This document shows, one piece after another, positions 51,175-63,739 of a DNA stretch of 64,000 bases. The position numbers and the translations under genes were made by a program. The notes beneath the pieces are model-generated. The model ran no database searches and was not told the DNA's origin. It saw nothing but the letters and a program-made list of their open reading frames with translations. The stretch comes from a virus, in IMG/VR virus record IMGVR_UViG_3300042291_001557, positions 36,257 to 100,256 of that record. One strand, 5' to 3'. Numbering within the stretch: position 1 is the stretch's first letter; each line of letters begins with the position of its first letter.

Positions 51175-51204
51175 AACTTAGTTCCACCTACGGACGACTT
51201 ACAA
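51175..51204 (-). promoter_or_regulatory. Cassette promoter 1
   Basis: TTGTAA gtcgtccgtaggtggaac TAAGTT. Confidence 0.85.
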
Positions 51205-51247
51205 GTTTCCCTGTCTGTCACCCGGTGGCGTATCGGCTGATAGGGAA

Positions 51248-51277
51248 AGATTAACCTTCCCTACGGACGACTTACAA
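51248..51277 (-). promoter_or_regulatory. Cassette promoter 2 (tandem with 1)
   Basis: TTGTAA gtcgtccgtagggaaggt TAATCT. Confidence 0.8.
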
Positions 51278-51281
51278 GCTT

Positions 51282-51785
51282 TTACTTGCTGGCCTCTCTA
51301 TCGGCCTTTGCATCACGGATTTCCCACAATCCCTTCTTAATCTTCCGGAAGGCCGGCGATTCCTGAATGAACTTCAAGGTAGTGGGATAGGAGAACCCGG
51401 AGATTTCTACGAGTTGCTCAGTGGTGTACTGCTCAAATATGTGAGCCTTTGACCAGTCGATGAAAGCGTCGTATTTATCAGAACGCTTCTCGGTCTTGGC
51501 CGTTACTTCTTCCATAGATTCGATTTCTATAGCGCAGTAGCCCCGTACCACTTCTATCAAAACTTCCGGATGAACAGAGTAAGAGGATAGGAACTTGGCA
51601 GGATTGCCGGAACTACCCATGCGTTGCCACACTTGCAGTGTGTACATAGCACGGAGCGTTTCACTAATACGAGAAACAGTTTCACTGGGGACACTGAAGG
51701 CGTTGCCGTATTCAGATACGGCATTGTCCCACATCTCTTTGTGGTTGCTCTTAATGAGTTCATCTGTAATGAATGGTGTTGTCAT
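51282..51785 (-). CDS. Hypothetical protein with C-terminal HTH-like segment
   Basis: Own promoter; YTTEQL.EI.GFSYPT..K.I.....F.K.KKG.WE. Confidence 0.7.
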   Translation of the reverse strand: MTTPFITDELIKSNHKEMWDNAVSEYGNAFSVPSETVSRISETLRAMYTLQVWQRMGSSGNPAKFLSSYSVHPEVLIEVVRGYCAIEIESMEEVTAKTEKRSDKYDAFIDWSKAHIFEQYTTEQLVEISGFSYPTTLKFIQESPAFRKIKKGLWEIRDAKADREASK

Positions 51786-51816
51786 TTGTTACTTCTTTCT
51801 AGTAGTTCTTGTTTGG

Positions 51817-51846
51817 ATTCTACCTGGCCCTACGGACGGCTTACAG
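51817..51846 (-). promoter_or_regulatory. Cassette promoter 3
   Basis: CTGTAA gccgtccgtagggccagg TAGAAT. Confidence 0.8.
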
Positions 51847-52086
51847 AATTTATTCGAATATTACATAATTCTCGAGGGGTGTGTCATAGTTTCTGGGGTC
51901 ATCCACCACCGTCAGTTAAATTCGGACTCTGAGTCAGGGCCTATTCGAGAAATATTCGGAAATTTGATTTTTTTACTGGGCCGGCCGCTGCTACGTAGTG
52001 AATTTTATTCACCGTCTAGACAATCACTTCGGCCCGAGCCCCGCCCTCTACCCGGGAACCGGGGCTCAGGAGAGGAAAAGTGCCGG

Positions 52087-52341
52087 TCACCTTTTCTTGT
52101 GGTAATCAATTGCCCGGGTATCCATCTTTCCATCTTCCAACCAGGCGTCGAACATCTCGTTGATGACCTGCAGTAGTCGACTTGATGAGATATTCCATTC
52201 AACTAGGTTCTCTGCGAACCTTCCGCTGGAGTAATCATCAAGAATTACTACCATTGCCTCAGCTCCCGTTGTTGCCAAGGTGTAATAGTTTTCCTCTAGG
52301 AGCCCCATTAATTCCTTTTTCTTGATTTTCTTTTCAAGCAT
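52087..52341 (-). CDS. Hypothetical protein
   Basis: Overlaps upstream gene, same strand. Confidence 0.6.
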   Translation of the reverse strand: MLEKKIKKKELMGLLEENYYTLATTGAEAMVVILDDYSSGRFAENLVEWNISSSRLLQVINEMFDAWLEDGKMDTRAIDYHKKR

Positions 52342-52576
52342 CTGGCTCTTCTTTCACTAGTTCTGCATATTCTAGAGCAGAATCCATAATCCACTGGTTG
52401 ACATCGTTACCAGCATTTTCCCACTCATCAAACTCCTTACAGACTAGAGCCCACCCTTCTTGGGTGAGTTCTAGCCCGTCCATGTTTTCGAACTGTGGTT
52501 TATCCCACCACAGAATGCACAGTTCTTCATCAGGGGAATAGCGACTTAGCATCTCGATGATTTGTTTGATAATCAC
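52334..52576 (-). CDS. Hypothetical protein (paralog of 54106..54366)
   Basis: PDEEL...W..K...W..V...F shared. Confidence 0.6.
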   Translation of the reverse strand: MIIKQIIEMLSRYSPDEELCILWWDKPQFENMDGLELTQEGWALVCKEFDEWENAGNDVNQWIMDSALEYAELVKEEPDA

Positions 52577-53190
52577 AACAACGACGCTTCTTTCAGGAAT
52601 TCACAGTATTGGGTAAAAATTGCGTCGCTTTGCGCTTCTTTCCATGCTTCGTACTTGTCAATGGACTCATAGTCGTCGTAATCAACTTCTCCCTCGTATT
52701 CGCATGGCTCATACATAGACTGAAAGACCGTGTCGCCTTTGAGGTACGCCTCAGTGCCTGCAAAGAAGCCAGCCTCTTCGTCATAGTCAAAGGTGAAGAG
52801 CAGTTCAGGAAAGAGCGTAGAGACCTTTAGGAAGCCTGCATCGGCTGGACCCCATGCAGTTTGGTAGCGCATGACAACTTCCCACGAGCCGTTAGCAAGT
52901 TGCATCGGGTGTCCGATGTCAGTGTCGCAATCGCCCCACTTGGTACCCCAATTATCGTATGACCAGTCATACCAATCCTTGTAGCCGTACTTGGCAGTGT
53001 TGGACTCTTGCTGTTTGCGATGTTCATCGGCTTTGTCGTCTCCGACATAGCCAGCAACTGTCTCGTGCAGTTCTGCAGGGCAAGGTACATAGGACTCGAG
53101 AATTCGGGAATCCTTGATTCCGTCAATGAATCGCTGTACTTCTGCTGGCGAGCCTTTTACGCTCAGTGTGGTTGATACCCAATTTGGCAT
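52573..53190 (-). CDS. YubB/DUF1281-like ferredoxin-fold protein
   Basis: MPNW..T.L...G, WYDW...NWGTKW, TAWGP, Y.EE..FF.G. Confidence 0.75.
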   Translation of the reverse strand: MPNWVSTTLSVKGSPAEVQRFIDGIKDSRILESYVPCPAELHETVAGYVGDDKADEHRKQQESNTAKYGYKDWYDWSYDNWGTKWGDCDTDIGHPMQLANGSWEVVMRYQTAWGPADAGFLKVSTLFPELLFTFDYDEEAGFFAGTEAYLKGDTVFQSMYEPCEYEGEVDYDDYESIDKYEAWKEAQSDAIFTQYCEFLKEASLL

Positions 53191-53224
53191 GCTGTGTTCT
53201 TTCTAGTAGTGGTGAACAATGTTT

Positions 53225-53254
53225 AGATTAGTTGGTCCTACGGATGGCTTACAA
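53225..53254 (-). promoter_or_regulatory. Cassette promoter 4
   Basis: TTGTAA gccatccgtaggaccaac TAATCT. Confidence 0.85.
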
Positions 53255-53255
53255 G

Positions 53256-53534
53256 TTAGATGAAAGCAACTTCTATTGCGATTTCATCCTGCATTCCACA
53301 CTTGTCATCATTGGCTTCAAGCCAATCCTGAATCTCGTCGGTGATTTCTTGCCAGCCCTTGTCCCAGAAGCCGTTGTTGTTGAGAAAGTCGTACAACTCG
53401 TTCGGGTCAGGCAACTCTCGGAACTCCACAGGGAACTTCTCATCAGGGATGGAGAAGTAGTCCCACTTGGCGTAGGTCGGACCTTCGGGGTACGAGACCT
53501 CGGTAAGGATTCTTATGTAGTGGTCAACGCTCAT
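53256..53534 (-). CDS. Acidic hypothetical protein
   Basis: ATGA overlap with upstream gene, GAGGAG SD. Confidence 0.6.
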   Translation of the reverse strand: MSVDHYIRILTEVSYPEGPTYAKWDYFSIPDEKFPVEFRELPDPNELYDFLNNNGFWDKGWQEITDEIQDWLEANDDKCGMQDEIAIEVAFI

Positions 53535-53719
53535 TCTGACTCCTCTGTTGTGATGTCCCATGGGTGTGTGTCCCATTCTGATTGACCGTCAAGGTCTAAT
53601 GACTTGAGTTGGTCGTTGTTGAACGAGTAGTAGATAGAGAGAGCCTCTTCTTCGGTCTCTGCCTCAATCTCATAGTCGTGGTTGATGGATTCTGTTACTC
53701 GGAGTGTAAATTTCTTCAT
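53531..53719 (-). CDS. Small acidic protein (leaderless)
   Basis: MKKF.L.V.E.....YEIEAETEEEA pattern; ATG 6 nt after -10. Confidence 0.65.
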   Translation of the reverse strand: MKKFTLRVTESINHDYEIEAETEEEALSIYYSFNNDQLKSLDLDGQSEWDTHPWDITTEESE

Positions 53720-53725
53720 GCCTTC

Positions 53726-53755
53726 ACCTTACTTTTACCTACGGGCGACTTACAA
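53726..53755 (-). promoter_or_regulatory. Cassette promoter 5
   Basis: TTGTAA gtcgcccgtaggtaaaag TAAGGT. Confidence 0.85.
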
Positions 53756-53849
53756 ATTGTCATCCACCACCGTTGAATAAAAAAGGGCTAGGGCTAAGTC
53801 GTAAATACAGAAAGCTGGATTTCTGACTAAACGCGCAGCGTGGTCAGAA

Positions 53850-54119
53850 TCACTCTTCGTGGTGAGGGGCGTCTTGAGCCCCGTCCCGGTTGGCCTGCAG
53901 ATATGTCGAATAGTTCATTTCGAACAATTGGTCAATTATTTCGGCCAGTTCGCCGCCGGACCGCCGGACGAATGGGTCCCATACCAAGATGCGCTTGTCC
54001 ACATACTCAACCAGTGTGGGGATATCCATGATGTCAACATCCGTTGGGTATGCAGAGAGCACGAACGAGACCGCATTTGTCATGAATGCTTTCTTTATTT
54101 CGTCTTCAGACCAAGGCAC
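53850..54119 (-). CDS. Hypothetical protein
   Basis: AGGAG SD; operon context. Confidence 0.55.
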   Translation of the reverse strand: MPWSEDEIKKAFMTNAVSFVLSAYPTDVDIMDIPTLVEYVDKRILVWDPFVRRSGGELAEIIDQLFEMNYSTYLQANRDGAQDAPHHEE

Positions 54120-54366
54120 CGAGTTTTTCTCCTACTAGTTTATAAATCTCTTGATGGACATCAGCCCATGAACTGGTTAGGGCATTAGCCCACTTTTCGT
54201 TCTCAAATATAGAGACTACATCATTCCACTCCATCGGAGCAAGCGTGTCATAGTCGCCATCGTCTCTGATTCCCAGCGGAAAGTCGTCTTTTGTGAACCA
54301 CACACAGACGAGCTCTTCGTCGGGGTCCATATCGGACATGTGTCTAGCAATGTCTTTTGCCTTCAT
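54106..54366 (-). CDS. Hypothetical protein (paralog of 52334..52576)
   Basis: TAATG coupling; PDEEL...W..K. Confidence 0.6.
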   Translation of the reverse strand: MKAKDIARHMSDMDPDEELVCVWFTKDDFPLGIRDDGDYDTLAPMEWNDVVSIFENEKWANALTSSWADVHQEIYKLVGEKLGALV

Positions 54367-54677
54367 TAGAAGACCTGGTCCACTGTGTAGTGCTTCATAC
54401 TAAGAACCCAAGCGAGAACATCGCTCTGCCAGCCTGAATAGGCTTTCAGTGGGAGGGTGACGTCACTACTATCGTGACCAACAATGTATGAAAGTGCCAT
54501 TGAATAGTTTCCACGAGGGTTGTAATGGAGTGTGTAATAGACCTGACCATTGTTGCCAGCGGTTGCTAGCAGTTGGTAGTGCTTTTGTGTCCTGTTCGCA
54601 TGAAAGCGGACTTCTAGTGGTGTGGAATCGCCAAAGTTTGCTAAGGCGTCCCAGTGGAGTTGATAATCGTTGCTCAT
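54366..54677 (-). CDS. Hypothetical protein (leaderless)
   Basis: ATG 54677 is 7 nt after -10. Confidence 0.6.
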   Translation of the reverse strand: MSNDYQLHWDALANFGDSTPLEVRFHANRTQKHYQLLATAGNNGQVYYTLHYNPRGNYSMALSYIVGHDSSDVTLPLKAYSGWQSDVLAWVLSMKHYTVDQVF

Positions 54678-54684
54678 GTGGTCC

Positions 54685-54714
54685 ATCTTATTTCACCCTA
54701 CGTGCGGCTTACAA
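54685..54714 (-). promoter_or_regulatory. Cassette promoter 6
   Basis: TTGTAA gccgcacgtagggtgaaa TAAGAT. Confidence 0.85.
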
Positions 54715-54743
54715 GTTCCAGAGGACCCGTACCGGGGCTCGGC

Positions 54744-54773
54744 AAAGAGAAAGGGCAGGATTTCTCCTGCCCT
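54744..54773 (-). terminator. Intrinsic terminator
   Basis: AGGGCAGGA-4 nt-TCCTGCCCT hairpin followed by TTCTCTTT on minus. Confidence 0.7.
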
Positions 54774-54808
54774 GACCTTCGGTGTTGGGGGCTTGCGCCC
54801 CCTCAACC

Positions 54809-55231
54809 TCATTTGATAAAGCGAGCCACGCCCTTGTAGGTGCTTGTGTTGATAGTTTCCTCGTCAGTCATTTTCAGGACTGCGATAGCGTTTTCCAGTT
54901 CCTCAATGTCTGATTTGAGTGACCAGTCGGCAGAGGAGATTTCAGGCTCTTTTGGTGACTTCACAGAAGCAGGGAACTCAACGGTGATTTCGTATTTGTT
55001 GTGTTCCTCGTTGTAACGGAAGTTGTGAGCCTTACTGACGGAAGTTACTTTTCCTTTGCCTGAACGAAACATCTCGGCAAGAGTGTCACGAAAGTCTGAT
55101 ACAGCCTTTTCGTGGTCTTTCCGAGCCTTTTCGTTACTGGCTACTTCTTTCTGACGCTCTGCGAGAGCCTTTGATAATGCGTCAATCACTTTCTTAGTGC
55201 TGACCTTTACGCTTATTGGTTTTTGTGCCAT
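54809..55231 (-). CDS. Lys-rich coiled-coil hypothetical protein
   Basis: Start MAQKP after ACTAGAAA leader. Confidence 0.65.
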   Translation of the reverse strand: MAQKPISVKVSTKKVIDALSKALAERQKEVASNEKARKDHEKAVSDFRDTLAEMFRSGKGKVTSVSKAHNFRYNEEHNKYEITVEFPASVKSPKEPEISSADWSLKSDIEELENAIAVLKMTDEETINTSTYKGVARFIK

Positions 55232-55271
55232 TTCCCTATTTCTTTCTAGTAGTGGTGGGTTGGTAATTACC

Positions 55272-55301
55272 ACCTTAGTTTGCCCTACGGAGGGCTTACA
55301 A
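55272..55301 (-). promoter_or_regulatory. Cassette promoter 7
   Basis: TTGTAA gccctccgtagggcaaac TAAGGT. Confidence 0.85.
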
Positions 55302-55338
55302 GTTTGGTCGGGGGCTCAGGCGAGCCCCGCCCCGGGAG

Positions 55339-55542
55339 CTAGCCGGCAACCTCTTCCATTGTGTCTTGGTTGTAAATCGAGTTACATCGCCCACACACAT
55401 AGTGGAGACCATCCCATTCGTCGGGTGTTGGTTCAACAATTGTTCCGTCTTTCAAGCATGTCTCAAATCCGTCTAGGTGTGGGTTGTTCCCACAATCACA
55501 GACGAACCAATCAAAGGTGCTTTCTTTCAAGTTCAGAGCCAC
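55339..55542 (-). CDS. Small Cys-rich protein
   Basis: CDCGN.P..DGF..C...G...EP....W....YVC.RC. Confidence 0.65.
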   Translation of the reverse strand: MALNLKESTFDWFVCDCGNNPHLDGFETCLKDGTIVEPTPDEWDGLHYVCGRCNSIYNQDTMEEVAG

Positions 55543-55545
55543 GAA

Positions 55546-56013
55546 TTACCACGAACTCTGATAGGCGAAAGTCCACTCATCGGAAATCTTGGAAAGAGCG
55601 TTGTCAATAATTTCCACGGTGGATTCCAAGTCCTTGTAATACCATTCGTCATAGTCGGTGCTACCAAAGAAGAAGCCCGATGATGTCGGAAGGTGTTCGC
55701 TAGCGAGAGCATGGTTACCTAGAACCATCTTGCAAATAGTGCGCAGTTCTTCCAGTTTCTCAATGGGGACATAAGCCTCACGACAATCGTCATTACCGTC
55801 TTGACAGTTCTGCACGAACCAGTCATGAATGGCGTTCGCCTTTCTCCAGTAGCCAATCTTCACTTGACATTGGATAGAGGGAGTGTCTTTCTCCATGAAG
55901 TTAGTAACTCCAATTGCGTTAGCAACCGTGTGAAACCGTTTGTTCATTTCTTCCCCTCTCCATTCCATAGGTGAGAGGTAATTTTTTGCGTATAAGTATT
56001 GGTCTAATCCCAT
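55546..56013 (-). CDS. Conserved phage protein (MGLDQY...YWRKANAIH.WF type)
   Basis: MGLDQYL, YWRKANAIHDWF, LPT..GFFFG...YD.WY, YQSSW; ATG 7 nt after -10. Confidence 0.75.
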   Translation of the reverse strand: MGLDQYLYAKNYLSPMEWRGEEMNKRFHTVANAIGVTNFMEKDTPSIQCQVKIGYWRKANAIHDWFVQNCQDGNDDCREAYVPIEKLEELRTICKMVLGNHALASEHLPTSSGFFFGSTDYDEWYYKDLESTVEIIDNALSKISDEWTFAYQSSW

Positions 56014-56020
56014 GTCTGCC

Positions 56021-56050
56021 ACCTTACTAGTGCCTACGGACGGCTTACAA
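56021..56050 (-). promoter_or_regulatory. Cassette promoter 8
   Basis: TTGTAA gccgtccgtaggcactag TAAGGT. Confidence 0.85.
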
Positions 56051-56175
56051 ATTCTCTTCCACCACCGTCAGATAAGGGAGAGCCCTCATGGCCGGCTATC
56101 GCGTGCGTGGATAGATTTATCCGTTTTCTTGCGATACTTTCCCAGCTCAGATTCGAGTCGGGGCTCAGGGGCCGA

Positions 56176-56424
56176 TTAGAAGCCGGCACGCCGAGAGTCT
56201 CTTGCCAACCTAAGACGGTCTGTCTCACCAAGTCCGCCCCAGACTCCAAAGTTCAGTGCGTTGTCAGTTGCGTACTGCAGGCAGTCGGCAGAGACAGGGC
56301 AAGTCGAGCAAACTTTCTTGGCTTGCTTGAGTTCCGTATTTGACGAAGGGAAAAACACAGACTTATCCATGTCTTTACAGTTTGCCTGCTCAACCCAATT
56401 ACGTTCGTACAGTGCCATACTCAT
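56176..56424 (-). CDS. whiB: WhiB family transcriptional regulator (second copy)
   Basis: W.EQANC...D..VFFP, AK.VC..CPV..DCL.YA, GVWGG..E..R. Confidence 0.92.
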   Translation of the reverse strand: MSMALYERNWVEQANCKDMDKSVFFPSSNTELKQAKKVCSTCPVSADCLQYATDNALNFGVWGGLGETDRLRLARDSRRAGF

Positions 56425-56849
56425 TAGTAGAGCCCCAATTCTTCACGCTCATCGTCCGAGACGGTGCGCAAGGTGCTTGCGCTACCCATTGCATCGTGGT
56501 GACTGAGGGAATACTCAACACGGTCACTAAATACCTTGTAGGTCATACGCCAGTCACTGCGGACTGTCATGCCTTCAATTAGGTCAGCGACATTCTTGGC
56601 GTGAAAATACCCAGAGACATTGCGATTCCATAGTCTCAAGTCCTCAACCTTCCACCAGTTGGTCTCATTGGAGTCACGAAGTTCCTCGGTAATCATCGCA
56701 AAGTCCTCAACAGCGAAGTCCCAACAGTCTCCGTAGCAGGTAGAACCGTACTCGGTGTCAATTGACATTGTTTCGCCGTCTTCCTCGTAGGTGAGGCAGG
56801 TGCATGAATTGGTAATTTCGCCAGTGGCGATAGGTGTATCTAGTTCCAT
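56424..56849 (-). CDS. Hypothetical protein (leaderless)
   Basis: ATG 7 nt after -10; SHHD motif. Confidence 0.65.
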   Translation of the reverse strand: MELDTPIATGEITNSCTCLTYEEDGETMSIDTEYGSTCYGDCWDFAVEDFAMITEELRDSNETNWWKVEDLRLWNRNVSGYFHAKNVADLIEGMTVRSDWRMTYKVFSDRVEYSLSHHDAMGSASTLRTVSDDEREELGLY

Positions 56850-58109: not shown

Positions 58110-58115
58110 GTCTCC

Positions 58116-58145: not shown

Positions 58146-58173
58146 GTCAGGGGTTTAGCCCCGGCTTCCTTCT

Positions 58174-58374
58174 CTACATACATACGTAGTCGAGAAAACC
58201 CGGGCCATTTCCTTCGGGGTCTGCCATTACAACAACAGTAGAACCATCGGTGAACTCAATCACTGTCGTTTCTACTGGGTCGCAATACCACATGAACTCT
58301 TTGATTTCATCGGCAGTGAGGCTCGTGACCTTTGCGATGGTCTTTCCGACAATGTCATCCACATAGTGTTTCAT
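58174..58374 (-). CDS. Small conserved phage protein
   Basis: VGKTI..V..LT..E.....W......VIEF.DG......DPEGNGPG.L. Confidence 0.65.
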   Translation of the reverse strand: MKHYVDDIVGKTIAKVTSLTADEIKEFMWYCDPVETTVIEFTDGSTVVVMADPEGNGPGFLDYVCM

Positions 58375-58721
58375 TACTGCTCCTTCAAGAAGTCTGAGAT
58401 TTCAGAGACAAGAGCCTTCTTGCCCTGCTTGTACGCTTCTTCAAGCATTGCGCTTTCAAGTTCCGCAATCCGAGCAAAACCCGCCACGAACAACATCATC
58501 ATCTCGTTTATTGCTTCTTTATCCTCATCGGTCATCTTCTTGACAGGTACTTCAAGGTCGTCAATGTCGTCAATCTCGTCAAGCGCATCAGGGTCAATGT
58601 TGTCAAGGTCAGGTCGGACTCCGCTACTGCGGAAAAGTATCAACGCTTCAATGATTACGGACAATTCCAACCTAGTGAACTCTCGGTCAAGTTGGGCGAT
58701 GGGTTCAATGTCGTCAAACAT
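58374..58721 (-). CDS. Acidic hypothetical protein
   Basis: TGATG coupling to upstream gene. Confidence 0.6.
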   Translation of the reverse strand: MFDDIEPIAQLDREFTRLELSVIIEALILFRSSGVRPDLDNIDPDALDEIDDIDDLEVPVKKMTDEDKEAINEMMMLFVAGFARIAELESAMLEEAYKQGKKALVSEISDFLKEQ

Positions 58722-59170
58722 CACTTGACCCCCAACCATGCGTTGAAGTCGTCATCTGTCATCGGCACAATCTTTGGAGTGAAGTCCATTTTGCTAATCA
58801 TGTTGGTGAGCATTGCTCGGTTCGCTTCTTCATTGTTCACAACTACCGTTCGTGCGAAGAAGTCAGCAGAGAAGAACAAGTCAGGCAGGTCGTAGTCGTA
58901 GCCGTCACTCTCGCCCTTGTCGTTGAGTGTGCCGACTAGCAACACATCTCCTGCGATGGGGTTGCCGTAGAGAACGGTAGCCGTGACATTGGGTTCAAGC
59001 CCAATGAGCAGACCCTCGTCATGGACATACATGGTCACTGCTCCGTGAGCCAATGAGACACAATCAAACCACCCACCGATTAGGTCGTTGATGACCGTGT
59101 GTGCGTTCTCCTTGGGGAGAATAATGGTGCGTGGTTCGCCTGTCGCTGGAATGAAAAGTGCTTTCGTCAT
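58721..59170 (-). CDS. DUF3846-like protein (leaderless)
   Basis: LIGGWFD.V....MYV.DEG....LEPN..AT......I.GDV.L.G. Confidence 0.7.
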   Translation of the reverse strand: MTKALFIPATGEPRTIILPKENAHTVINDLIGGWFDCVSLAHGAVTMYVHDEGLLIGLEPNVTATVLYGNPIAGDVLLVGTLNDKGESDGYDYDLPDLFFSADFFARTVVVNNEEANRAMLTNMISKMDFTPKIVPMTDDDFNAWLGVK

Positions 59171-59176
59171 GAGAAC

Positions 59177-59206
59177 AATTTACATCAGCCTACGCACGAC
59201 TTACAA
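59177..59206 (-). promoter_or_regulatory. Cassette promoter 12
   Basis: TTGTAA gtcgtgcgtaggctgatg TAAATT. Confidence 0.85.
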
Positions 59207-59457
59207 ATTAGCCTCATCCACCACCGTCACTAAAAAACCGTTGCCCTTCAGCCCTGTCACCTCAAAGAAAAACGGAATAAACGCATTAGTAATAGTTGTA
59301 CTGTGCAACTATCGGAACAGGGGTAGCCCCGCACCCCTGTCAGCCCACCGGGGCTCAGCTCAGATAATTCTGAATAGTAGGTCTAGGAGATACCAAAAGA
59401 TGGTGACTGCGCTCACCGTGACGAGCGAGAGTAACAAGATTTCTAGCGTTGTGCGTT

Positions 59458-59889
59458 TCATACGAACAGCCTAGACCGAAGCCAGCAGTCTGCCATTGCA
59501 TCTGCGAGCGCACCCGAAGCAGAGCCCGGGTCGGTAACGATTTCTTCCTCGTCTGTGAAAGCGAGAGCCGAGCCAGTACTTTCGGCAGTAATTGTCGTAA
59601 TGAGAGAGACACGCCTACGCTCTGGGTGGTCAGACGGTGCGCTATCTATGTCACCATCTTCGTTGAGTGGGGCTGCCCACCCTGTCGTGTGGATAGACAT
59701 ACCTACGAAGTTCTCAAAGTTGTAGGAAGCGTCAAGCAGGTCGTACACATCTAACGCCCAAGCAATTTTTACAAACTGCTCTTGTTCCGTGACTCCGTAG
59801 AGTTCTGCTCTTTTTTTATTGAAGCAGTCTGGGTCGTTGTCTAATGCGAATTGGAGTTGGTCGTGGGCGAGGAGTTCTGCTGATTTCAT
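59458..59889 (-). CDS. Hypothetical protein (paralog of 57091..57561; leaderless)
   Basis: ATG 59889 is 6 nt after -10; GWAAPLN.DG motif. Confidence 0.7.
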   Translation of the reverse strand: MKSAELLAHDQLQFALDNDPDCFNKKRAELYGVTEQEQFVKIAWALDVYDLLDASYNFENFVGMSIHTTGWAAPLNEDGDIDSAPSDHPERRRVSLITTITAESTGSALAFTDEEEIVTDPGSASGALADAMADCWLRSRLFV

Positions 59890-59895
59890 AACCCC

Positions 59896-59925
59896 AGAGT
59901 ACTTCACCCTACGGGTGGCATACAA
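59896..59925 (-). promoter_or_regulatory. Cassette promoter 13
   Basis: TTGTAT gccacccgtagggtgaag TACTCT. Confidence 0.75.
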
Positions 59926-59996
59926 GTTTCTAAACTTGCGAAACTTAGCCCCGTTCCCCTTCCTCGTTGTGATTCCTTGACTTTTTTTGTGACCCA

Positions 59997-60239
59997 TCAG
60001 ATTCCTTCCAACGCCATTGCTGCGCCTCGGAGAGTGTGGGCCCGTTCGGCTGCTTTGAGCAGTTGTACCGCTTGCTGAGCAAGGTAGGTGGCTGTGAACT
60101 CATTGACCTGCGGGTCGAAACTCGCTAAGGACCGCTTGATGTCCTCGTAGGTCGCTTGCGCTCCTAGTTGGGCTTCGTGTGCCAGTTGGTTCAGGTAGTC
60201 GGATGTTGTCTTGGGTTGCGTGGTCGCTGTTGTTTCCAT
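59997..60239 (-). CDS. Small helical protein (leaderless)
   Basis: ATG 60239 is 6 nt after -10. Confidence 0.65.
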   Translation of the reverse strand: METTATTQPKTTSDYLNQLAHEAQLGAQATYEDIKRSLASFDPQVNEFTATYLAQQAVQLLKAAERAHTLRGAAMALEGI

Positions 60240-60245
60240 ACACAC

Positions 60246-60275
60246 AACCTATCAAACCCTACGAACGACTTACAA
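60246..60275 (-). promoter_or_regulatory. Cassette promoter 14
   Basis: TTGTAA gtcgttcgtagggtttga TAGGTT. Confidence 0.85.
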
Positions 60276-60281
60276 CCCCAA

Positions 60282-60297
60282 TGTTTCACGTGAAACA
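60282..60297. promoter_or_regulatory. parS: parS-type palindrome TGTTTCACGTGAAACA
   Basis: Exact match to the canonical bacterial chromosomal parS consensus; palindrome extends to 20 bp (60280-60299); intergenic. Confidence 0.8.
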
Positions 60298-60328
60298 TTC
60301 TGTACCGGCCACTCGGGGCTCAGGGACG

Positions 60329-60368
60329 AAAAACCCCACTCGCCTGTCGTGTCCGAGGGCGAGTGGGG
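60329..60368 (-). terminator. Terminator-like hairpin after KTSC gene 1
   Basis: 11-bp stem CCCCACTCGCC/GGCGAGTGGGG, 13-nt loop, TTTTT on minus. Confidence 0.7.
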
Positions 60369-60382
60369 AATCCGTTGGGGTC

Positions 60383-60679
60383 TTAGTTCTTGGTGAACTC
60401 GTAGTGAGGCTTGATGTGTTCGTTCACGAACTTACCGAAACTCTCGGCAACCATCAGGTTGAATGCCACAAAGGCAGGAACGCCTTGGTAGTAATACTTT
60501 GCCCCACCTTTGTAGGTGATGACCATTACTGATTCGTCAGTGAGGTAGTGAGCCTCGGTGATGGCTGATGATTCTGCTGGCAGGAAGATAACGCTTCCAA
60601 ACCTGCTGATGTGGAATGTACCCTTGCCCGAAGGAAGTGGGTTATTGACTGTTGTTTCAAATGTCGCTGTTGTGTTCAT
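60383..60679 (-). CDS. KTSC domain protein 1 (leaderless)
   Basis: SSAI....Y......ITYKGG..Y.Y.GVP......L..AESFGKFVN.HIKP.Y. Confidence 0.8.
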   Translation of the reverse strand: MNTTATFETTVNNPLPSGKGTFHISRFGSVIFLPAESSAITEAHYLTDESVMVITYKGGAKYYYQGVPAFVAFNLMVAESFGKFVNEHIKPHYEFTKN

Positions 60680-60685
60680 GTCTCC

Positions 60686-60715
60686 ACCTTATCCCAACCT
60701 ACGGAAGGCTTACAA
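60686..60715 (-). promoter_or_regulatory. Cassette promoter 15
   Basis: TTGTAA gccttccgtaggttggga TAAGGT. Confidence 0.85.
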
Positions 60716-60791
60716 ATCAGGAAACCCTTACTGGCGAGCCCCGGCCCCCCAGTAAAAGGGCCACCAGCATTGCTGCCAGTGGCCCCAGTGG

Positions 60792-60968
60792 TTAGTCGTT
60801 CTGGTACTTGTCGTCTTCTTCGATGAACTCATTCATCTTTACAACCAGTTCCTCTGCGTAGGGGCGTTCCCCTGTGTAGAAGGTCTGGGGGTCATCGTAG
60901 GCCCTGTAGGTGGCTGCCTCGTAGGCCTCCAGTAGCAGGGTGTATGGGATTGTCACTGTTTTGCTCAT
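60792..60968 (-). CDS. 58-aa hypothetical protein (not in ORF track; leaderless)
   Basis: ATG 6 nt after -10; MSKTVTIPYTLLLEAYEAATYRAYDDPQ...; GGGCCAC/GTGGCCC hairpin plus TTTT downstream. Confidence 0.65.
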   Translation of the reverse strand: MSKTVTIPYTLLLEAYEAATYRAYDDPQTFYTGERPYAEELVVKMNEFIEEDDKYQND

Positions 60969-60974
60969 ACGGAC

Positions 60975-61004
60975 ATCTTACCCCAGACTCCGGAGGGCTT
61001 ACAA
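60975..61004 (-). promoter_or_regulatory. Cassette promoter 16
   Basis: TTGTAA gccctccggagtctgggg TAAGAT. Confidence 0.8.
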
Positions 61005-61080
61005 GCTCGGTTTGTAGCCCCGTACGTATGTTCGTACCGTTGCTTGTTGATACGGACTCCCGGGGCTCGGTAGCCCAAAG

Positions 61081-61115
61081 CCCCACCAACCTGTCGTGTC
61101 CGAGGGTTGGTGGGG
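61081..61115 (-). terminator. Hairpin after KTSC gene 2
   Basis: 11-bp stem CCCCACCAACC/GGTTGGTGGGG with the same 13-nt loop as 60334-60368. Confidence 0.6.
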
Positions 61116-61131
61116 TCTCCGTGGAGGAGGG

Positions 61132-61422
61132 TTAGGAACCTTGCCAGAACTCGTAGTTCGGCTTGATGTGGGTGTTGATGAACTTCCCGAAACTTTCGGT
61201 AACCAGCAAGTGGAACACCACGGTGGTAGGAACTTCACGGTAGTAGTAGGTCTTTCCACCCGTGTAGGTGACCGAGAGAGTTTCGTCTTGGTATTGAGCC
61301 ATCTCAATTGCTGATGACTCAGGGTAGATAATTAGCGCACCGTTTTTCAGAACGCTGAATTTTCCGTTTCCTGCTGGGAGTTGTGTTTTGTGTGTGTGGG
61401 GGAATGTCGCTGTTGATGTCAT
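61132..61422 (-). CDS. KTSC domain protein 2 (leaderless)
   Basis: SSAI..A.Y..ETL.VTY.GG..Y.Y..VP......L...ESFGKFIN.HIKP.Y. Confidence 0.8.
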   Translation of the reverse strand: MTSTATFPHTHKTQLPAGNGKFSVLKNGALIIYPESSAIEMAQYQDETLSVTYTGGKTYYYREVPTTVVFHLLVTESFGKFINTHIKPNYEFWQGS

Positions 61423-61428
61423 ACCCAA

Positions 61429-61458
61429 ACTTTACCACCCCCTACGGAGGGCTTACAA
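61429..61458 (-). promoter_or_regulatory. Cassette promoter 17
   Basis: TTGTAA gccctccgtagggggtgg TAAAGT. Confidence 0.85.
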
Positions 61459-61500
61459 ACCTGCCCCTATCACAGCGGGGCTGTAGGGGCAGGCCGGAAG

Positions 61501-61530
61501 TTGTAGGCCGTGCGTAGTATTTGATAAAGT
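61501..61530 (+). promoter_or_regulatory. Cassette promoter 18 (only plus-strand copy)
   Basis: TTGTAG gccgtgcgtagtatttga TAAAGT. Confidence 0.75.
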
Positions 61531-61536
61531 GGACTT

Positions 61537-61725
61537 ATCGGCAAAGGACACCGAGTGGAAACCAAAGACTGAGGCAACTCGGCGACTGGGAGTGCCACAA
61601 ATATGCAGGCAAGCCCTATCTGTCGGATTGGTTCACGACCGGAAACCTCCCTCATCTCTCTGAGGGTCAATGGTGAATCACAGAGAACTAGAACCCTAGC
61701 CCTCAGCAGGCTGGGGTTCTTTTTT
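61537..61725 (+). ncRNA. Candidate approx. 190-nt structured non-coding RNA
   Basis: Bounded by promoter 18 and an intrinsic terminator; no start codon at the expected TSS; several stems seen by eye. Confidence 0.55.
61691..61725 (+). terminator. Intrinsic terminator
   Basis: GAACCCTAGCC-7 nt-GGCTGGGGTTC then TTTTTT. Confidence 0.8.
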
Positions 61726-61748
61726 GCCACCGGAGCCCCGGCACGGGT

Positions 61749-61787
61749 AAAAGAAAAAGCCACCCGAAGGTGACTCTTTCTTTCTTT
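61749..61787 (-). terminator. Intrinsic terminator (possibly bidirectional)
   Basis: AGTCACC-TTCG-GGTGGCT then TTTTCTTTT on minus. Confidence 0.75.
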
Positions 61788-61851
61788 GCTCAACCAGTAC
61801 AGCGACTAACTGGGAGCAAGAACTTTCTCGCTGTCGCTGTTCTACGAATTG

Positions 61852-62031
61852 TTATCCGTAGTGTTTGCTCACCCATTCAGGTGAATTGGTATCTTCTTCT
61901 TCGTAAGTGAAGAAGGCGATATTTTTTCTAAGCCATTGAACCGTGGTGTATGCGCCGACTGTGAATATTCCCACGCCTGCGCACTTGACCAAGAACCAAG
62001 TGACGATAATAAATGCTTTTGCTGTTTCCAT
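61852..62031 (-). CDS. 59-aa membrane protein (not in ORF track; leaderless)
   Basis: ATG 6 nt after -10; METAKAFIIVTWFLVKCAGVGIFTVGAYTTVQWLRK... Confidence 0.65.
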   Translation of the reverse strand: METAKAFIIVTWFLVKCAGVGIFTVGAYTTVQWLRKNIAFFTYEEEDTNSPEWVSKHYG

Positions 62032-62037
62032 GTCTTT

Positions 62038-62067
62038 ACCTTAGTTCAGCCTACGAACGGCTTACAA
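62038..62067 (-). promoter_or_regulatory. Cassette promoter 19
   Basis: TTGTAA gccgttcgtaggctgaac TAAGGT. Confidence 0.85.
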
Positions 62068-62338
62068 GTTTCCGTTCGTCTACTTGCGTGTAGAAGGGAA
62101 CAAGTGGCTCTCTGTCCGTAGGTTGTGGGTAGTTGTTGTTGAAGTAGTTGGTAGCGAACTCGCCCTCGTGGAGAGTGACCTCAGGGGTATCCTGTGTCAT
62201 GTCCACGATGAGTAAAGCGTCTGCTTCCTTCATGTAAGCCTGCCCACCGTTGAAATGGTAAAGCCTTCCTTCTTGTGTTGCTGTGTCTATGACCTGAGCC
62301 CACTCGGTGTGGGTGGTCGCTGTGTGTGTTGTTTTCAT
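62051..62338 (-). CDS. Hypothetical protein (leaderless)
   Basis: ATG 6 nt after -10. Confidence 0.65.
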   Translation of the reverse strand: MKTTHTATTHTEWAQVIDTATQEGRLYHFNGGQAYMKEADALLIVDMTQDTPEVTLHEGEFATNYFNNNYPQPTDREPLVPFYTQVDERKLVSRS

Positions 62339-62344
62339 ACCTTC

Positions 62345-62374
62345 AACTTAGCCGAGACTACGGGCGACTTACAA
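62345..62374 (-). promoter_or_regulatory. Cassette promoter 20
   Basis: TTGTAA gtcgcccgtagtctcggc TAAGTT. Confidence 0.85.
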
Positions 62375-62409
62375 ATTTGCCCCAATGGAGAGCGGGGCTC
62401 ATTTGGGGC

Positions 62410-62616
62410 AAAAAGAAAGACCTACCGCCCCACCTCCGACACTAGGGCTAGCACCCACTTAAACTAGAGCAGTAATCGCGCGTAGAGGACGGATGGACTG
62501 TGGCGGATGCGTGATGGTCGTACGCCCATCAGAGGCTTGCTGTCCAGAGCCTTATCCTGCGGAGGGACTGGTGCGGTTAAGTTGTATCGGAGGGGAGGCG
62601 GTAAGCCTCTCTCACA
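62410..62616 (-). ncRNA. Candidate approx. 205-nt structured non-coding RNA with 27-bp closing stem
   Basis: Promoter 21 upstream; 62611-62585 pairs with 62441-62415 at 26 of 27 positions including 5 G-U pairs valid only on minus; U-tract follows; only a 12-codon ORF at the TSS. Confidence 0.7.
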
Positions 62617-62622
62617 AAGACC

Positions 62623-62652
62623 AACTTACTACCCCCTACGGACGACCTACAA
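62623..62652 (-). promoter_or_regulatory. Cassette promoter 21
   Basis: TTGTAG gtcgtccgtagggggtag TAAGTT. Confidence 0.85.
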
Positions 62653-62688
62653 GTTGGCAAAGTAGCCCCGCAGCTCTATGCTTGCCGC

Positions 62689-62883
62689 ATGAGTTCAGAA
62701 GATTACACCAAAGATGATTTAGGTCGAGACTTGTTCTTGATGGTCAAGGCCGGACTACTTGATGTCTCCATGAGAGAAGATGGCGAGTGGGTCTATAACG
62801 TCAGTGAGTCTTCATTGCTGCTCTCGGAAGAAGAGAAGGCAGACATTATTAGCCGGCTGGACGATTACGACGACATCTATTAG
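62689..62883 (+). CDS. Small acidic protein (leaderless, divergent)
   Basis: TTGGCA-17-TATGCT then 6 nt to ATG; L..MVKAGLLDV..REDGEWVY. Confidence 0.6.
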   Translation: MSSEDYTKDDLGRDLFLMVKAGLLDVSMREDGEWVYNVSESSLLLSEEEKADIISRLDDYDDIY

Positions 62884-62906
62884 CCGGTCGGGGCTCAGGG
62901 GTGTTG

Positions 62907-63149
62907 TTACACTTCTTCCCCACAGGCAGGACACCCACCAACTGCGTACATCTCTCCACAGTTACGGCAGGCGTTCGGGTGTTCTTCATAGAACGAGAAC
63001 GCTGGTTTCCGATAGACGATTCCGTTGATTTGGTATCCACCCTTTGAGGCGTTATACGCATAGTGAGTACCGAGCTTTTCAGCCCACTTGATTATTTCGT
63101 CAAGTTCTTCTTGTGTCACTTCTTCTATTGTCGCTGTTCTCTTTGGCAT
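62907..63149 (-). CDS. Small protein with C-terminal Cys4 finger (leaderless)
   Basis: CRNCG......CPACG; ATG 63149 is 6 nt after -10. Confidence 0.65.
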   Translation of the reverse strand: MPKRTATIEEVTQEELDEIIKWAEKLGTHYAYNASKGGYQINGIVYRKPAFSFYEEHPNACRNCGEMYAVGGCPACGEEV

Positions 63150-63155
63150 ACCCAT

Positions 63156-63185
63156 ACCTTACTTCACCCTACGCACGGCTAACAA
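63156..63185 (-). promoter_or_regulatory. Cassette promoter 22
   Basis: TTGTTA gccgtgcgtagggtgaag TAAGGT. Confidence 0.8.
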
Positions 63186-63231
63186 ATCAGTGGCAAGCCC
63201 CGGCCTTCCACTGATTCCGGAGCGTGTCGTG

Positions 63232-63459
63232 TTAGTCGTCCTTTCTTTCTTCGTTCATCATCTTCAGGTGACGACTCATTTGTTCCGATAGTTCGTCTTC
63301 GTTATCGACGTACTCACCGTCTCCAAGATAAGCAGAGACCCACTTACCTGTCTCTTCGTCAAAGCAGGTTCCTTCAGTAAGAGATTCCTCTTCTTGTTCG
63401 GTGTCCCACTCCCAAGAGTTGGTTGCTGCGTCAAATGAAATAATAAAGTAGTGCTTCAT
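63232..63459 (-). CDS. Acidic hypothetical protein (leaderless)
   Basis: ATG 63459 is 7 nt after -10. Confidence 0.65.
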   Translation of the reverse strand: MKHYFIISFDAATNSWEWDTEQEEESLTEGTCFDEETGKWVSAYLGDGEYVDNEDELSEQMSRHLKMMNEERKDD

Positions 63460-63466
63460 ACGCCCC

Positions 63467-63496
63467 ACCTTACTTTGGACTACGCACGACCTACAA
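63467..63496 (-). promoter_or_regulatory. Cassette promoter 23
   Basis: TTGTAG gtcgtgcgtagtccaaag TAAGGT. Confidence 0.8.
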
Positions 63497-63522
63497 GCCA
63501 TACCTAGCCCCGTCGTACCCGG

Positions 63523-63567
63523 TAGAAAGTATCCGGACACTGGGGGAAGCGTCCGGATACTTTTCTA
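63523..63567 (-). terminator. Long inverted repeat after 44-aa gene
   Basis: TAGAAAGTATCCGGAC ... GTCCGGATACTTTTCTA. Confidence 0.6.
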
Positions 63568-63568
63568 G

Positions 63569-63703
63569 CTACCGTGAGTAACGGAAGCGTAGATAGCGAA
63601 GGTGTGCCTTCGCCTGAATGAGACGGAAGTAGGTGTAACCCTCGTTCTGTCCGGTCTTGATGATGAATGGATTACGCATATGTTTCCCTTTCGCTGTTTC
63701 CAT
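63569..63703 (-). CDS. 44-aa basic peptide (not in ORF track; leaderless)
   Basis: ATG 6 nt after -10; METAKGKHMRNPFIIKTGQNEGYTYFRLIQAKAHLRYLRFRYSR. Confidence 0.5.
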   Translation of the reverse strand: METAKGKHMRNPFIIKTGQNEGYTYFRLIQAKAHLRYLRFRYSR

Positions 63704-63709
63704 GAACAC

Positions 63710-63739
63710 ACCTTATCTCAACCTCCGGACGGCTAACAA
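63710..63739 (-). promoter_or_regulatory. Cassette promoter 24
   Basis: TTGTTA gccgtccggaggttgaga TAAGGT. Confidence 0.75.

Follow-up and report, generated by a model that had tools for sequence, protein, structure and literature searches.

We analysed a 64,000-nt stretch of phage DNA, here called the window, which carries an array of small genes headed by near-identical promoter-like elements. Scanning with the pattern TTGTWDGYCNNNCGTAGGN6TANNNT (up to 2 mismatches, chance level from dinucleotide shuffles) returned exactly 24 matches at 51175-63739 against 0.02 expected, the number that a first-pass annotation of this DNA had counted in 12.6 kb. Allowing 3 mismatches added just one match, an overlapping reverse-strand artefact. 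All copies but one (23/24) lay on the minus strand, the exception being at 61501-61530, and a scan of the whole 100,256-bp contig found no copy beyond the 24. Because the window stops 261 bp past the last copy, the array is truncated by the contig end. As the first-pass annotation had described, what followed each promoter was either a non-coding unit or between one and three small genes.

51175..63739, minus strand: promoter array, distal part of a predicted early-gene array, cut at the contig end (64000); 'leaderless' in the rows below is a prediction from the ATG position
51175..51204, minus: promoter 1, proximal of a tandem pair; 35-nt leader with a CACCACTACTAGAAAAGG box, then ATG 51139 of an AAA_5 ATPase gene
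51248..51277, minus: promoter 2, distal member of that pair; orthologues with other box types retain the -10 TAATCT
51817..51846, minus: promoter 3, CTGT variant; 31-nt leader with ACTACTAGAAAGAA, then ATG 51785 of a 167-aa winged-helix protein
53225..53254, minus: promoter 4; 34-nt leader with CACCACTACTAGAAAGAA, then ATG 53190 (205 aa)
53726..53755, minus: promoter 5, leaderless, ATG 53719; ACGGTGGTGGATGA upstream
54685..54714, minus: promoter 6, leaderless, ATG 54677; strong terminator hairpin upstream
55272..55301, minus: promoter 7; ~40-nt leader with CCACCACTACTAGAAAGAA
56021..56050, minus: promoter 8, leaderless, ATG 56013; orthologues in L044, L048 and L049 have the same flanks and other boxes
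56857..56886, minus: promoter 9, leaderless, ATG 56849; CGTATG variant
57598..57627, minus: promoter 10; 21-nt leader, then ATG 57576 (161 aa)
58116..58145, minus: promoter 11, leaderless, ATG 58109
59177..59206, minus: promoter 12, leaderless, ATG 59170 of a DUF3846 protein; -10 TAAATT
59896..59925, minus: promoter 13, leaderless, ATG 59889; -10 TACTCT
60246..60275, minus: promoter 14, leaderless, ATG 60239; parS-like palindrome just upstream
60686..60715, minus: promoter 15, leaderless, ATG 60679
60975..61004, minus: promoter 16, leaderless, ATG 60968; CGGAGT variant, cassette located elsewhere in the relative G001
61429..61458, minus: promoter 17, leaderless, ATG 61422
61501..61530, plus: promoter 18, sole reversed copy; heads a ~190-nt non-coding unit ending in a terminator (stem 61690-61720)
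62038..62067, minus: promoter 19, leaderless, ATG 62031
62345..62374, minus: promoter 20, leaderless, ATG 62338
62623..62652, minus: promoter 21; heads a ~200-nt non-coding unit
63156..63185, minus: promoter 22, leaderless, ATG 63149
63467..63496, minus: promoter 23, leaderless, ATG 63459
63710..63739, minus: promoter 24, leaderless, ATG 63703

The motif fits the actinobacterial sigma-A promoter frame TTG-N21-TAnnnT. The constant 18-bp spacer reported earlier was present in 24/24 copies, within the 16-19 bp of sigma-70/sigma-A promoters, together with a -10 TAnnnT in 24/24 and a -35 TTG in 23/24. Our recount of CGTAG agreed with the earlier 21/24; it was missing at 56857, 60975 and 63710. Conservation was also seen where the pattern fixes nothing, namely AA at -2/-1, G10 T11 C12, A27 G28 and G31. 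The ~15 bp that begin with the second half of the -35 hexamer and reach as far as -19, hereafter the box, are not needed by a housekeeping sigma factor. The boxes had no common internal symmetry hinting at any known binding-protein class.

An ATG stood 7-8 nt past the -10 in 16/24 copies in the window, exactly at the expected transcription start, which implies that the predicted mRNAs of these units are leaderless; in G001, ATG or GTG occupied this position in 38/47 copies. The remaining window copies were followed by a conserved CTACTAG-GAAAG leader.

The phage is an uncultured freshwater myovirus of ~150 kb infecting Actinobacteria, a host assignment based on its WhiB genes, its actinophage-like portal and the lake-water origin of every sequencing run containing contig sequence; no RNA run was among these. 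WhiB genes were found in 5/5 genomes of relatives (the Pfam control matched in Corynebacterium only), and one lies within the array. The best relatives of the portal were Gordonia and Brevibacterium phage portals (~43% identity across half its length). The first-pass annotation had framed the array by T4-type phages; as to membership this was rejected in favour of an actinophage, given the portal, the WhiB genes and searches of four complete relatives that gave no hit to sigma-70 region 2 or, with profiles that lacked a positive control, to MotA or AsiA. Resemblance to cyanophages was limited to one fibre-like virion protein.

56176..56424, minus strand: gene of a WhiB-like protein, encoded within the array

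Comparison with relatives separated the box from the rest of the promoter. The complete relative G001 contained 49 such promoters, all inside one 38-kb region and 45/49 in the same orientation. Nine box types were found on one frame among related lineages, and each lineage had its own box (~-33 to -19) in every copy. At orthologous promoters, the frame, the -10 and the flanks were retained and the box was different; for example, the orthologue of promoter 21 at G001:125997 had the same N6 (GGGTAG) and the other type of box. Between the window and the close relative L044, orthologous boxes were 0.73 identical, versus 0.83-0.88 among paralogues, and orthologous -10 elements were 0.95 identical, versus 0.78-0.83 among paralogues. 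We compared 17 orthologous promoter pairs of G002 and G003, whose median protein identity is 92%. Box position 4 differed in 17/17, position 12 in 16/17 and position 9 in 13/17, while of the other thirteen box positions twelve were the same in all pairs and one differed once; each of the free spacer positions 17-24 differed in 5-9 of the 17 pairs. Judged from these comparisons, the box follows the genome, and the remainder of the promoter follows orthology.

More distant relatives were of two kinds. One had arrays of the canonical TTGACA-N17-TGnTAnnnT with free spacers; the other had a box plus TACACT without any TTG. Six window-type promoters were also present in L022, an unrelated 7-kb phage fragment with zero protein homology to the contig, and phages with different boxes co-occurred in the same lake samples. 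None of 185,579 prokaryotic species representatives scanned had more than a single chance copy of the motif.

The order of the cassettes was not fixed: order and promoter number varied among relatives, and the window at 62.0-60.0 kb and G001 at 127.0-131.1 kb differed in order and copy number. One block that had moved between these two began ~37 nt ahead of a -35 and ended with the stop codon of its gene. L044 had an extra promoter identical to the adjacent one at 30/30 positions, including the free N6. Joints at or near promoters in Logan contigs (59905 to 60280, and others) had sides of only 21-30 nt and were flagged unreliable. The earlier proposal that the repeats serve as recombination points is thus moderately supported by the differing order and the extra promoter, with no reliable excision junction among these joints.

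The 67 nt upstream of the promoters were more strongly structured than control windows drawn at random from this region (mean -20.1 versus -14.6 kcal/mol; Mann-Whitney p = 0.001). The units had been described as often closed by a hairpin, which applies to about half of them; textbook terminators of a hairpin plus T-run were few. The 7-mer CGGGGCT/AGCCCCG occurred on both strands, mostly in intergenic DNA preceding a promoter, and all of its contig copies fell in one span. The first-pass annotation had overlooked this array-restricted motif, the leaderless arrangement and the conserved leader box.

46577..63765, both strands: CGGGGCT/AGCCCCG span, with 27/27 contig copies

We searched for a protein that may read the box. 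MotA and AsiA (PF09114, PF09010) had no match in four complete relatives, and neither profile matched any control genome; the same four genomes gave no match to a T7-type polymerase, in a search without a positive control, or to sigma-70 region 2. Two DNA-binding proteins are encoded in or beside the array.

47805..48182, plus strand, opposite to the array: gene of a ~125-aa protein with a C-terminal sigma-70 region-4-type HTH
51282..51785, minus strand: gene of the 167-aa protein with a C-terminal winged helix, found in all lineages

The N-terminal part of the ~125-aa protein resembles, by eye, a helicase-associated domain. It was rejected as the box reader because its recognition helix is the same across all box types, and it is a candidate reader of some conserved element. 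The recognition helix of the winged-helix protein was likewise conserved and did not vary with the box type, so that neither of the two tracked the box. Every lineage also had one fast-evolving protein family without a recognisable fold.

These results suggest, with a probability of about 0.6, that the box is an embedded recognition site for a candidate phage factor co-evolving with it, in an early or middle regulon of ~50 promoters. The window would hold the distal half of this regulon, whose genes are small ORFans and a few enzymes. Each unit is built on the actinobacterial sigma-A frame (TTG, -36 to -34; TAnnnT, -12 to -7) and would be transcribed by host RNA polymerase; in two thirds of the window copies the first transcribed base would be the A of the ATG. 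The ~15-bp box would be recognised, as an asymmetric site, by a sequence-specific factor that the phage encodes or carries, and co-evolution of the two would give each phage lineage a private promoter type. Gain, loss and reordering of cassettes would take place at borders formed by the promoter repeat and the structured GC-rich stretch ahead of it. We infer the existence of a reader from the comparisons above; by its sign it could be an activator or sigma-appropriating factor, or a shut-off repressor. A phage factor is favoured over a host factor because the box is lineage-specific and switched in all copies while the orthologous -10 and flanks are inherited. The dedicated regulon proposed earlier, read by a phage or a host factor, therefore gained strong comparative support, and the host half of the proposal is disfavoured. 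A further step, which we regard as possible and hold tentatively, is that the box is paired with a fast co-evolving protein lacking detectable similarity to sigma factors, polymerases, MotA or AsiA, an orthogonal system making host RNA polymerase private to each lineage.

An explanation without any reader is unlikely, although several observations agree with it. These would be ordinary host-type early promoters, with spacers homogenised by recombination or gene conversion in the manner of the T4-type PeSL elements (promoter plus stem-loop), and the lineage differences would be drift of whole families. The identical neighbouring promoters of L044 and the variable cassette order and number are as it predicts, and the PeSL stem-loops and promoters of T4-type phages likewise vary from one phage pair to the next (PMC4122927). 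Between the window and L048, neutral sites were saturated (orthologous upstream flanks 0.34 identical), so the speed of box change alone needs no selection. However, C13, G14 and A16 were the same in 24/24 copies while the neighbouring positions 10-12 and 19-24 varied freely, and conversion tracts would homogenise both. The -10, just 6 bp off, follows orthology rather than the genome, and an in-place swap of a box requires homology on two sides, of which only 4 and 6 bp are common once the boxes differ. Moreover, the arrays of the same kind in distant relatives have unconstrained spacers, indicating that an array alone does not homogenise the spacer.

It is less probable still, and in our judgement distinctly improbable, that all 30 bp together form the promoter used by a polymerase which the phage encodes or brings in with the virion, or by a cryptic sigma-like factor replacing host sigma-A, and hence that sigma-A does not read the motif. 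The TTG-less distant relatives and a -35 hexamer far from TTGACA in all box lineages would suit such an enzyme, and the sigma-displacing proteins reported for mycobacteriophage D29, which have no recognisable sigma domain, are a precedent (bioRxiv 10.64898/2026.10.05.756390). Against it, searches of the four complete relatives for sigma-70 region 2 and, without a positive control, for a T7-type polymerase came back empty, and nine lineages retained TTG and TAnnnT at sigma-70 spacing while the remainder changed.

An RNA-level explanation would make TAAGGT a Shine-Dalgarno sequence and place the box in the 5' UTR of transcripts from further upstream, as the operator of a translational regulator or of an antisense RNA. 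This is very improbable: TAAGGTG, in most copies 6-7 nt ahead of the ATG, does resemble the complement of the 16S rRNA 3' end, and read-through transcripts of such closely spaced cassettes would include the box, but T25, A26 and T30 of TAnnnT are invariant and the AGG core is not, the TAAATT (with its following 6 nt), TACTCT and TAATCT copies have no Shine-Dalgarno character, the variable positions show by eye no consistent base-pairing covariation, the constant 21 nt between TTG and TAnnnT is a promoter signature, and in G002-G004 the same frame lies upstream of 25-40-nt leaders with a separate GAAAGGGG ribosome site.

A phage-read box has likenesses in several known systems. T4 middle promoters combine a MotA box, centred near -30 and taking the place of the -35, with a sigma-70-type -10 and AsiA sigma appropriation. 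The window shares the specific box near -30 with a sigma-70-type -10 in a putative early/middle regulon; in contrast to T4, a TTG still occupies -36 to -34, and the box is longer, reaches -19 and is lineage-specific. A box that seemingly replaces the -35 occurs not in the window but in the TTG-less distant relatives. In the T7 group, the promoters are those of a single-subunit phage polymerase, and a genome-wide specificity region co-evolves with its reader. Here too, one specificity region is common to every promoter of a genome and changes from one related phage to another, but the frame is that of the host sigma-A holoenzyme, and the search without a positive control gave no phage polymerase match. 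The private promoters may perhaps be a T7-like specificity system placed on host sigma-A promoters, driven by competition among co-occurring related phages.

T4-type PeSLs are many near-identical units, each with a structured stretch, a sigma-70-type promoter and the start of a small gene (PMC2839356, PMC4122927). The window array is similar in the stem-loop-type stretch before promoters repeated through a region of small variable ORFs, in the recurrence of AGCCCCG/CGGGGCT in that stretch, in a consensus that differs between phage groups, and in indels and reordering at unit borders among relatives. It differs in belonging to a phage that is not T4-like, in having mostly units predicted to be leaderless whereas PeSLs have a Shine-Dalgarno sequence, and in a 15-bp spacer box that switches array-wide between close relatives, whereas in published PeSLs conservation falls on the hexamers and on the stem. 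Gene cassettes bounded by promoters would thereby be an arrangement that extends past T4-type phages.

In Cluster A mycobacteriophages, the distance between stoperator motifs correlates with that between immunity repressors (PMC6550527, PMC9283540). Like the window promoters, stoperators are asymmetric sites of actinophages, present by the dozen in each genome and pointing one way with respect to transcription (here 23/24, and 45/49 in G001), with a genome-specific consensus that drifts between related phages. Cluster A sites lie mostly inside transcription units and stop elongation, whereas the box is fixed between -35 and -10; Cluster A phages are also temperate siphoviruses of ~50 kb (PMC6550527, PMC9283540).

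How phages of the abundant freshwater Actinobacteria control transcription has hardly been studied. The present family forms a natural series from host-type arrays through a private 15-bp box to a box that seemingly replaces the -35, and close genome pairs in which three box positions differ at nearly every orthologous promoter make the question of the reader directly testable. Orthogonal promoter/factor pairs for actinobacterial genetics are a possible yield. The array also adds many phage mRNAs that are predicted to be leaderless. In Cluster O mycobacteriophages, the predicted leaderless SigA-like promoters number only 8-9 per genome, with no lineage-specific spacer box described (PMC4351075). 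In Streptomyces, the -10 is TANNNT and 21% of mRNAs are leaderless, with a preference for AUG (PMC4895711), and the -10 and leaderless ATG geometry of the window promoters agree with those reported there.

Scanning the window with the pattern proposed in the first-pass annotation, at up to two mismatches, recovered all 24 copies between 51175 and 63739, compared with 0.02 in dinucleotide shuffles; a third permitted mismatch added one match only, which was an overlapping artefact. Twenty-three copies lie on the minus strand and one (61501-61530) is in the opposite orientation. The 18-nt spacing was found in 24 of 24 copies and CGTAG in 21, as annotated. A position-by-position count showed that several positions left open by the pattern are also conserved (an upstream AA, G10 T11 C12, A27 G28 and G31) and that positions 19-24 are free. 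The observed promoter array is real and belongs to a larger regulon of promoters in a freshwater actinophage. The window is the final 64 kb of a 100,256-bp IMG/VR contig with a CheckV completeness of 63%. No further copy occurred in the remaining 87 kb of the contig, and the array is cut off, because the contig ends 261 bp past the last copy. The window contained no tRNA genes, Rfam gave no match for 51000-64000 at E values up to 1, and megablast of the array found no match in GenBank phages.

The invariant letters of each copy are TTG and, 21 nt downstream, the TA and T of a hexamer, a layout that is the sigma-70 frame. The actinobacterial -10 consensus is TANNNT, the same as the array hexamer (PMC4895711). 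An ATG lies exactly 7 or 8 nt past the hexamer, at the expected transcription start, in 16 of the 24 window copies, and G001, a complete genome of a relative, has ATG or GTG there in 38 of 47 copies. We infer that transcription starts at these units, which are predicted to be promoters, mostly of leaderless mRNAs. In Streptomyces, roughly one transcript in five is leaderless, with AUG preferred (PMC4895711), and leaderless mRNAs have been predicted for Cluster O mycobacteriophage promoters as well (PMC4351075). A ribosome-binding-site role for the hexamer, which is often TAAGGT, is argued against by the position of the ATG, by the unconserved AGG core (TAATCT, TAAATT, TACTCT and TAGAAT are among the hexamers) and by three further complete relatives, G002-G004, where this frame precedes a leader of 25-40 nt that has its own CTACTAC...GAAAGGGG ribosome site. 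The ancestral leader, CACCACTACTAGAAAGAA, is retained in four window copies (51175, 51817, 53225 and 55272). GTA-N8-GTA was also considered as an NtcA site or a Pho box, and both readings were rejected by eye for unsuited geometry; an RNA hairpin in the spacer box was rejected for showing no consistent covariation by eye. Many leaderless ORFs (e.g. 60679, 61422, 63703 and 62338) open with ATG-(G/A)AA-ACA-ACA-GCG-AC, encoding M-x-T-T-A-T, and positions +4 to +12 were A-rich in a position count; such starts could be a leaderless-translation signal or a common N-terminus. Two of the units headed by a promoter lack an ATG where the start is expected, finish in a T-rich terminator and are small-RNA candidates:

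62410-62622, minus strand: non-coding unit, 82% conserved in G001 (126004-126264)
61531-61725, plus strand: non-coding unit

Membership of the T4 group was not borne out, and T4 labels hold by analogy only. A T4-like cyanophage had been suggested by a virion protein of 914 aa that shares about 45% identity with cyanomyovirus proteins (S-RSM4, S-PM2); the portal and WhiB results ruled this out. The closest portals are those of Brevibacterium, Gordonia and Mycobacterium phages. WhiB genes numbered two to four in each of the five related genomes examined, and among the control genomes for this family only Corynebacterium gave a match. One WhiB gene lies within the array of the window:

Window 56176-56424: WhiB gene

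WhiB is a marker for freshwater actinophages, and phages with multiple WhiB genes are known (PMC10914622). All sequencing runs holding the stretch came from lake water or freshwater, except one labelled just 'metagenome', and the complete relatives are 148-173 kb long. A PAPS-reductase (CysH-like) gene, of a class noted for lake phages (PMC10914622), lies upstream of the window in the structural region (contig positions 13089-14228). At 42364-43005 and 41174-42364 (plus strand), a weak proteasome-subunit match adjoins a metallophosphoesterase gene, and both are kept in all relatives.

Among 185,579 species representatives, no prokaryote carried more than one chance copy of the motif, and the nine matches were each single, chance-like and in unrelated taxa. 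The long exact pattern had no match in IMG/VR. An 18-mer gave 33 matches there, all single and chance-like except those in L022, a 7-kb fragment of another phage with six window-type promoters and no protein in common with this contig. The complete G001 genome (148,355 bp) carries its own version of the motif 49 times, all at 103-141 kb and none elsewhere; 45 copies point one way and four, at the upstream array end (109.7-114.8 kb), are on the other strand. G002, G003 and G004 have 28, 27 and 14 copies, each set within a single 25-29-kb region. The upstream array end of G001 encodes ThyX, a phosphoesterase, an SNF2-type helicase and a transglycosylase; therefore, the regulon is an early or middle one and comprises more than ORFans.

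We collected 79 relatives in IMG/VR through a 593-aa gene adjoining the array, and a clear promoter family was present at 20 loci. These share the frame TTG-N21-TAnnnT and carry nine different boxes between -35 and -10:

Boxes of the promoter arrays (G, complete genomes; L, IMG/VR loci)
This window: TTGTAAGYCGTCCGTAGG
L044: TTGTTAGTCGTCCGTAAC
G001 and L048: TTGTCGGTNAGGGGTGGG
L049: TTGTTGGGTTNGGTAAGC
L050: TTGTTANCCANTCCACCA
G002: TTGGAAATTTGGTATC
G003: TTGTAAATCTGATATCGG
L075: TTGGCNAGTCTGTACC
G004: TTGGGAAGNCTGTCC

The arrays of the relatives are syntenic and most of their genes are shared, at 40-95% identity, so that orthologous promoters could be paired. Between the window and L044, the -10 hexamers of orthologues were 0.95 identical, compared with 0.78-0.83 for paralogues, and the downstream flanks 0.87 compared with 0.35; for the boxes, orthologues were 0.73 identical and paralogues 0.83-0.88. 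The box types of the window and L044 are distinguished by three positions. The unusual -10 of promoter 2, TAATCT, was found at the equivalent site in four lineages, each with a different box. G002 and G003, whose proteins have a median identity of 92%, give the clearest comparison, with 17 orthologous promoter pairs. Their boxes differ at position 4 in 17 of 17 pairs, at position 12 in 16 and at position 9 in 13; of the other thirteen box positions, 12 never differ and one differs once, and the free positions 17-24 each differ in 5-9 pairs. These counts show that the box is rewritten across all copies jointly, while its surroundings descend vertically. Among more distant relatives, the arrays of L115-L117 consist of canonical TCGATTTGACA-N17-TGATAGGTT promoters whose spacers are free, the motif of L107 and L111 is TGTCACACCC-N6-TACACT without any TTG, and in L106 an extended -10 follows TGTCCGACCCC; these relatives likely represent the ancestral state and a further step. 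In contigs from the same lake samples, L044-type and G001-type boxes occur at ends abutting sequence that matches the window (loose ends at 53550 and 60278), and phages with different boxes therefore co-occur.

Positions -33 to -19 are not read by a housekeeping sigma factor. Invariant positions stand beside free letters, and a few positions change in concert, as expected if a sequence-specific reader and its sites co-evolve. The T7 group, with its promoters and polymerases, and Cluster A mycobacteriophages, with their stoperators and repressors, offer known parallels; in the latter, the distance between motifs is correlated with that between repressors (PMC6550527). The dedicated regulon with its own reader, proposed in the first-pass annotation, is well supported by comparison, through the box switch in all copies, and is as yet unproven. 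The main rival is concerted evolution, in which conversion among the repeats would homogenise them without any reader. It accounts for the identical neighbouring promoters in L044, but is a poor fit for a unit with free positions in it and for a -10 that tracks orthology just 6 bp away. A host-specific explanation is at odds with close relatives living in the same water.

Several proteins were considered as the putative reader, which may be an activator or a repressor. Sigma-70 region 2 was not found in the four complete relatives, and searches for a T7-type polymerase, MotA and AsiA, each run without a positive control, gave no match. The plus-strand protein at 47805-48182, in which an HTH accompanies a helicase-associated-like domain, was rejected since its recognition helix is invariant across all box types; its gene (47730-48182, plus strand) is real, and of the two longer minus-strand ORFs that overlap it, 47772-48416 and 47231-47818, the former (214 aa) is probably spurious. 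Also rejected were a MarR-like winged-helix protein (40347-40799), 81-94% conserved across box types; a 215-aa protein of the relatives with a sigma-70 region-4 match, which resembles a small terminase; and a 167-aa winged-helix protein with a conserved recognition helix and weak fold matches. A 161-aa family, present in every lineage and evolving above the average rate, gave a confident structure model that matched no known fold in the PDB (Foldseek E >0.007, VIA-align Z <5). A 205-aa family had no PDB sequence match, and Pfam returned a single HNH match for ten fast-evolving G002/G003 proteins. A preprint reports actinophage proteins that displace sigma and have no recognisable sigma domain (bioRxiv 10.64898/2026.10.05.756390), so a cryptic factor is a plausible reader.

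The suggestion that cassettes recombine has moderate support, in that their order and number vary among relatives; the metagenome junctions were too short-sided to count, as Logan contigs, being short unitigs, break at the repeats and leave joints with short sides. Window 62.0-60.0 kb and G001 127.0-131.1 kb hold the same cassettes in another order and number. A paralogous gene family (~98 aa) has two copies in each; those of the window flank the 58-aa gene of promoter 16, which in G001 follows both copies. There are two parS-like sites in G001 and one in the window; the latter is a perfect palindrome, TGTTTCACGTGAAACA, at 60280-60299, just upstream of the -35 of promoter 14, and the G001 copies are at 127909-127927 and 130454-130473. 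One block that has moved starts about 37 nt ahead of the -35 and reaches as far as its gene's stop codon, and L044 and L048 have a promoter ahead of a gene that has none in the window. Most promoters have a structured stretch upstream. PeSL elements show the same architecture and behaviour (PMC2839356, PMC4122927), although the phage carrying this array is not T4-like.

Another repeated element, CGGGGCT with its complement AGCCCCG, occurs only within the array regions, where the two strands carry about equal numbers, with no copy in the remainder of any of these genomes:

Copies and location of CGGGGCT
Contig (G000): 27, window 46577-63765
G001: 60, 101.5-144.9 kb
G002: 57, 78.8-113.0 kb
G003: 56, 92.6-126.1 kb
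G004: 39, 95.2-131.4 kb

Base composition predicts just 9-19 copies, spread genome-wide. Unlike the box, CGGGGCT is identical in all lineages. The forward copies of G002 and G003 stop 8-11 or 19-21 nt ahead of TTG, a distance of one or two helical turns. The element may form the stem of an inter-cassette hairpin or be a site for one of the conserved DNA-binding proteins; two such proteins are the first candidate binders for CGGGGCT and ACGGTGGTGGAAG. The element (G)ACGGTGGTGGA(A/T)GA lies just upstream of some promoters in all lineages, L048 included:

Window 53756-53780: upstream of promoter 5
Window 56051-56075: upstream of promoter 8
Window 59207-59235: upstream of promoter 12

In the more distant L101, L102 and L108, it directly precedes start codons, like a ribosome-binding region. 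Further dense repeats were seen in L103 (IMG/VR 3300043395_003024), with 23 copies of GGTGTAGGTAAGT in 19 kb, and in G004, where GTAGATAAG occurs 77 times at 92-131 kb, often as GGGGGAGTRGTAGATAAGT directly upstream of the -35.
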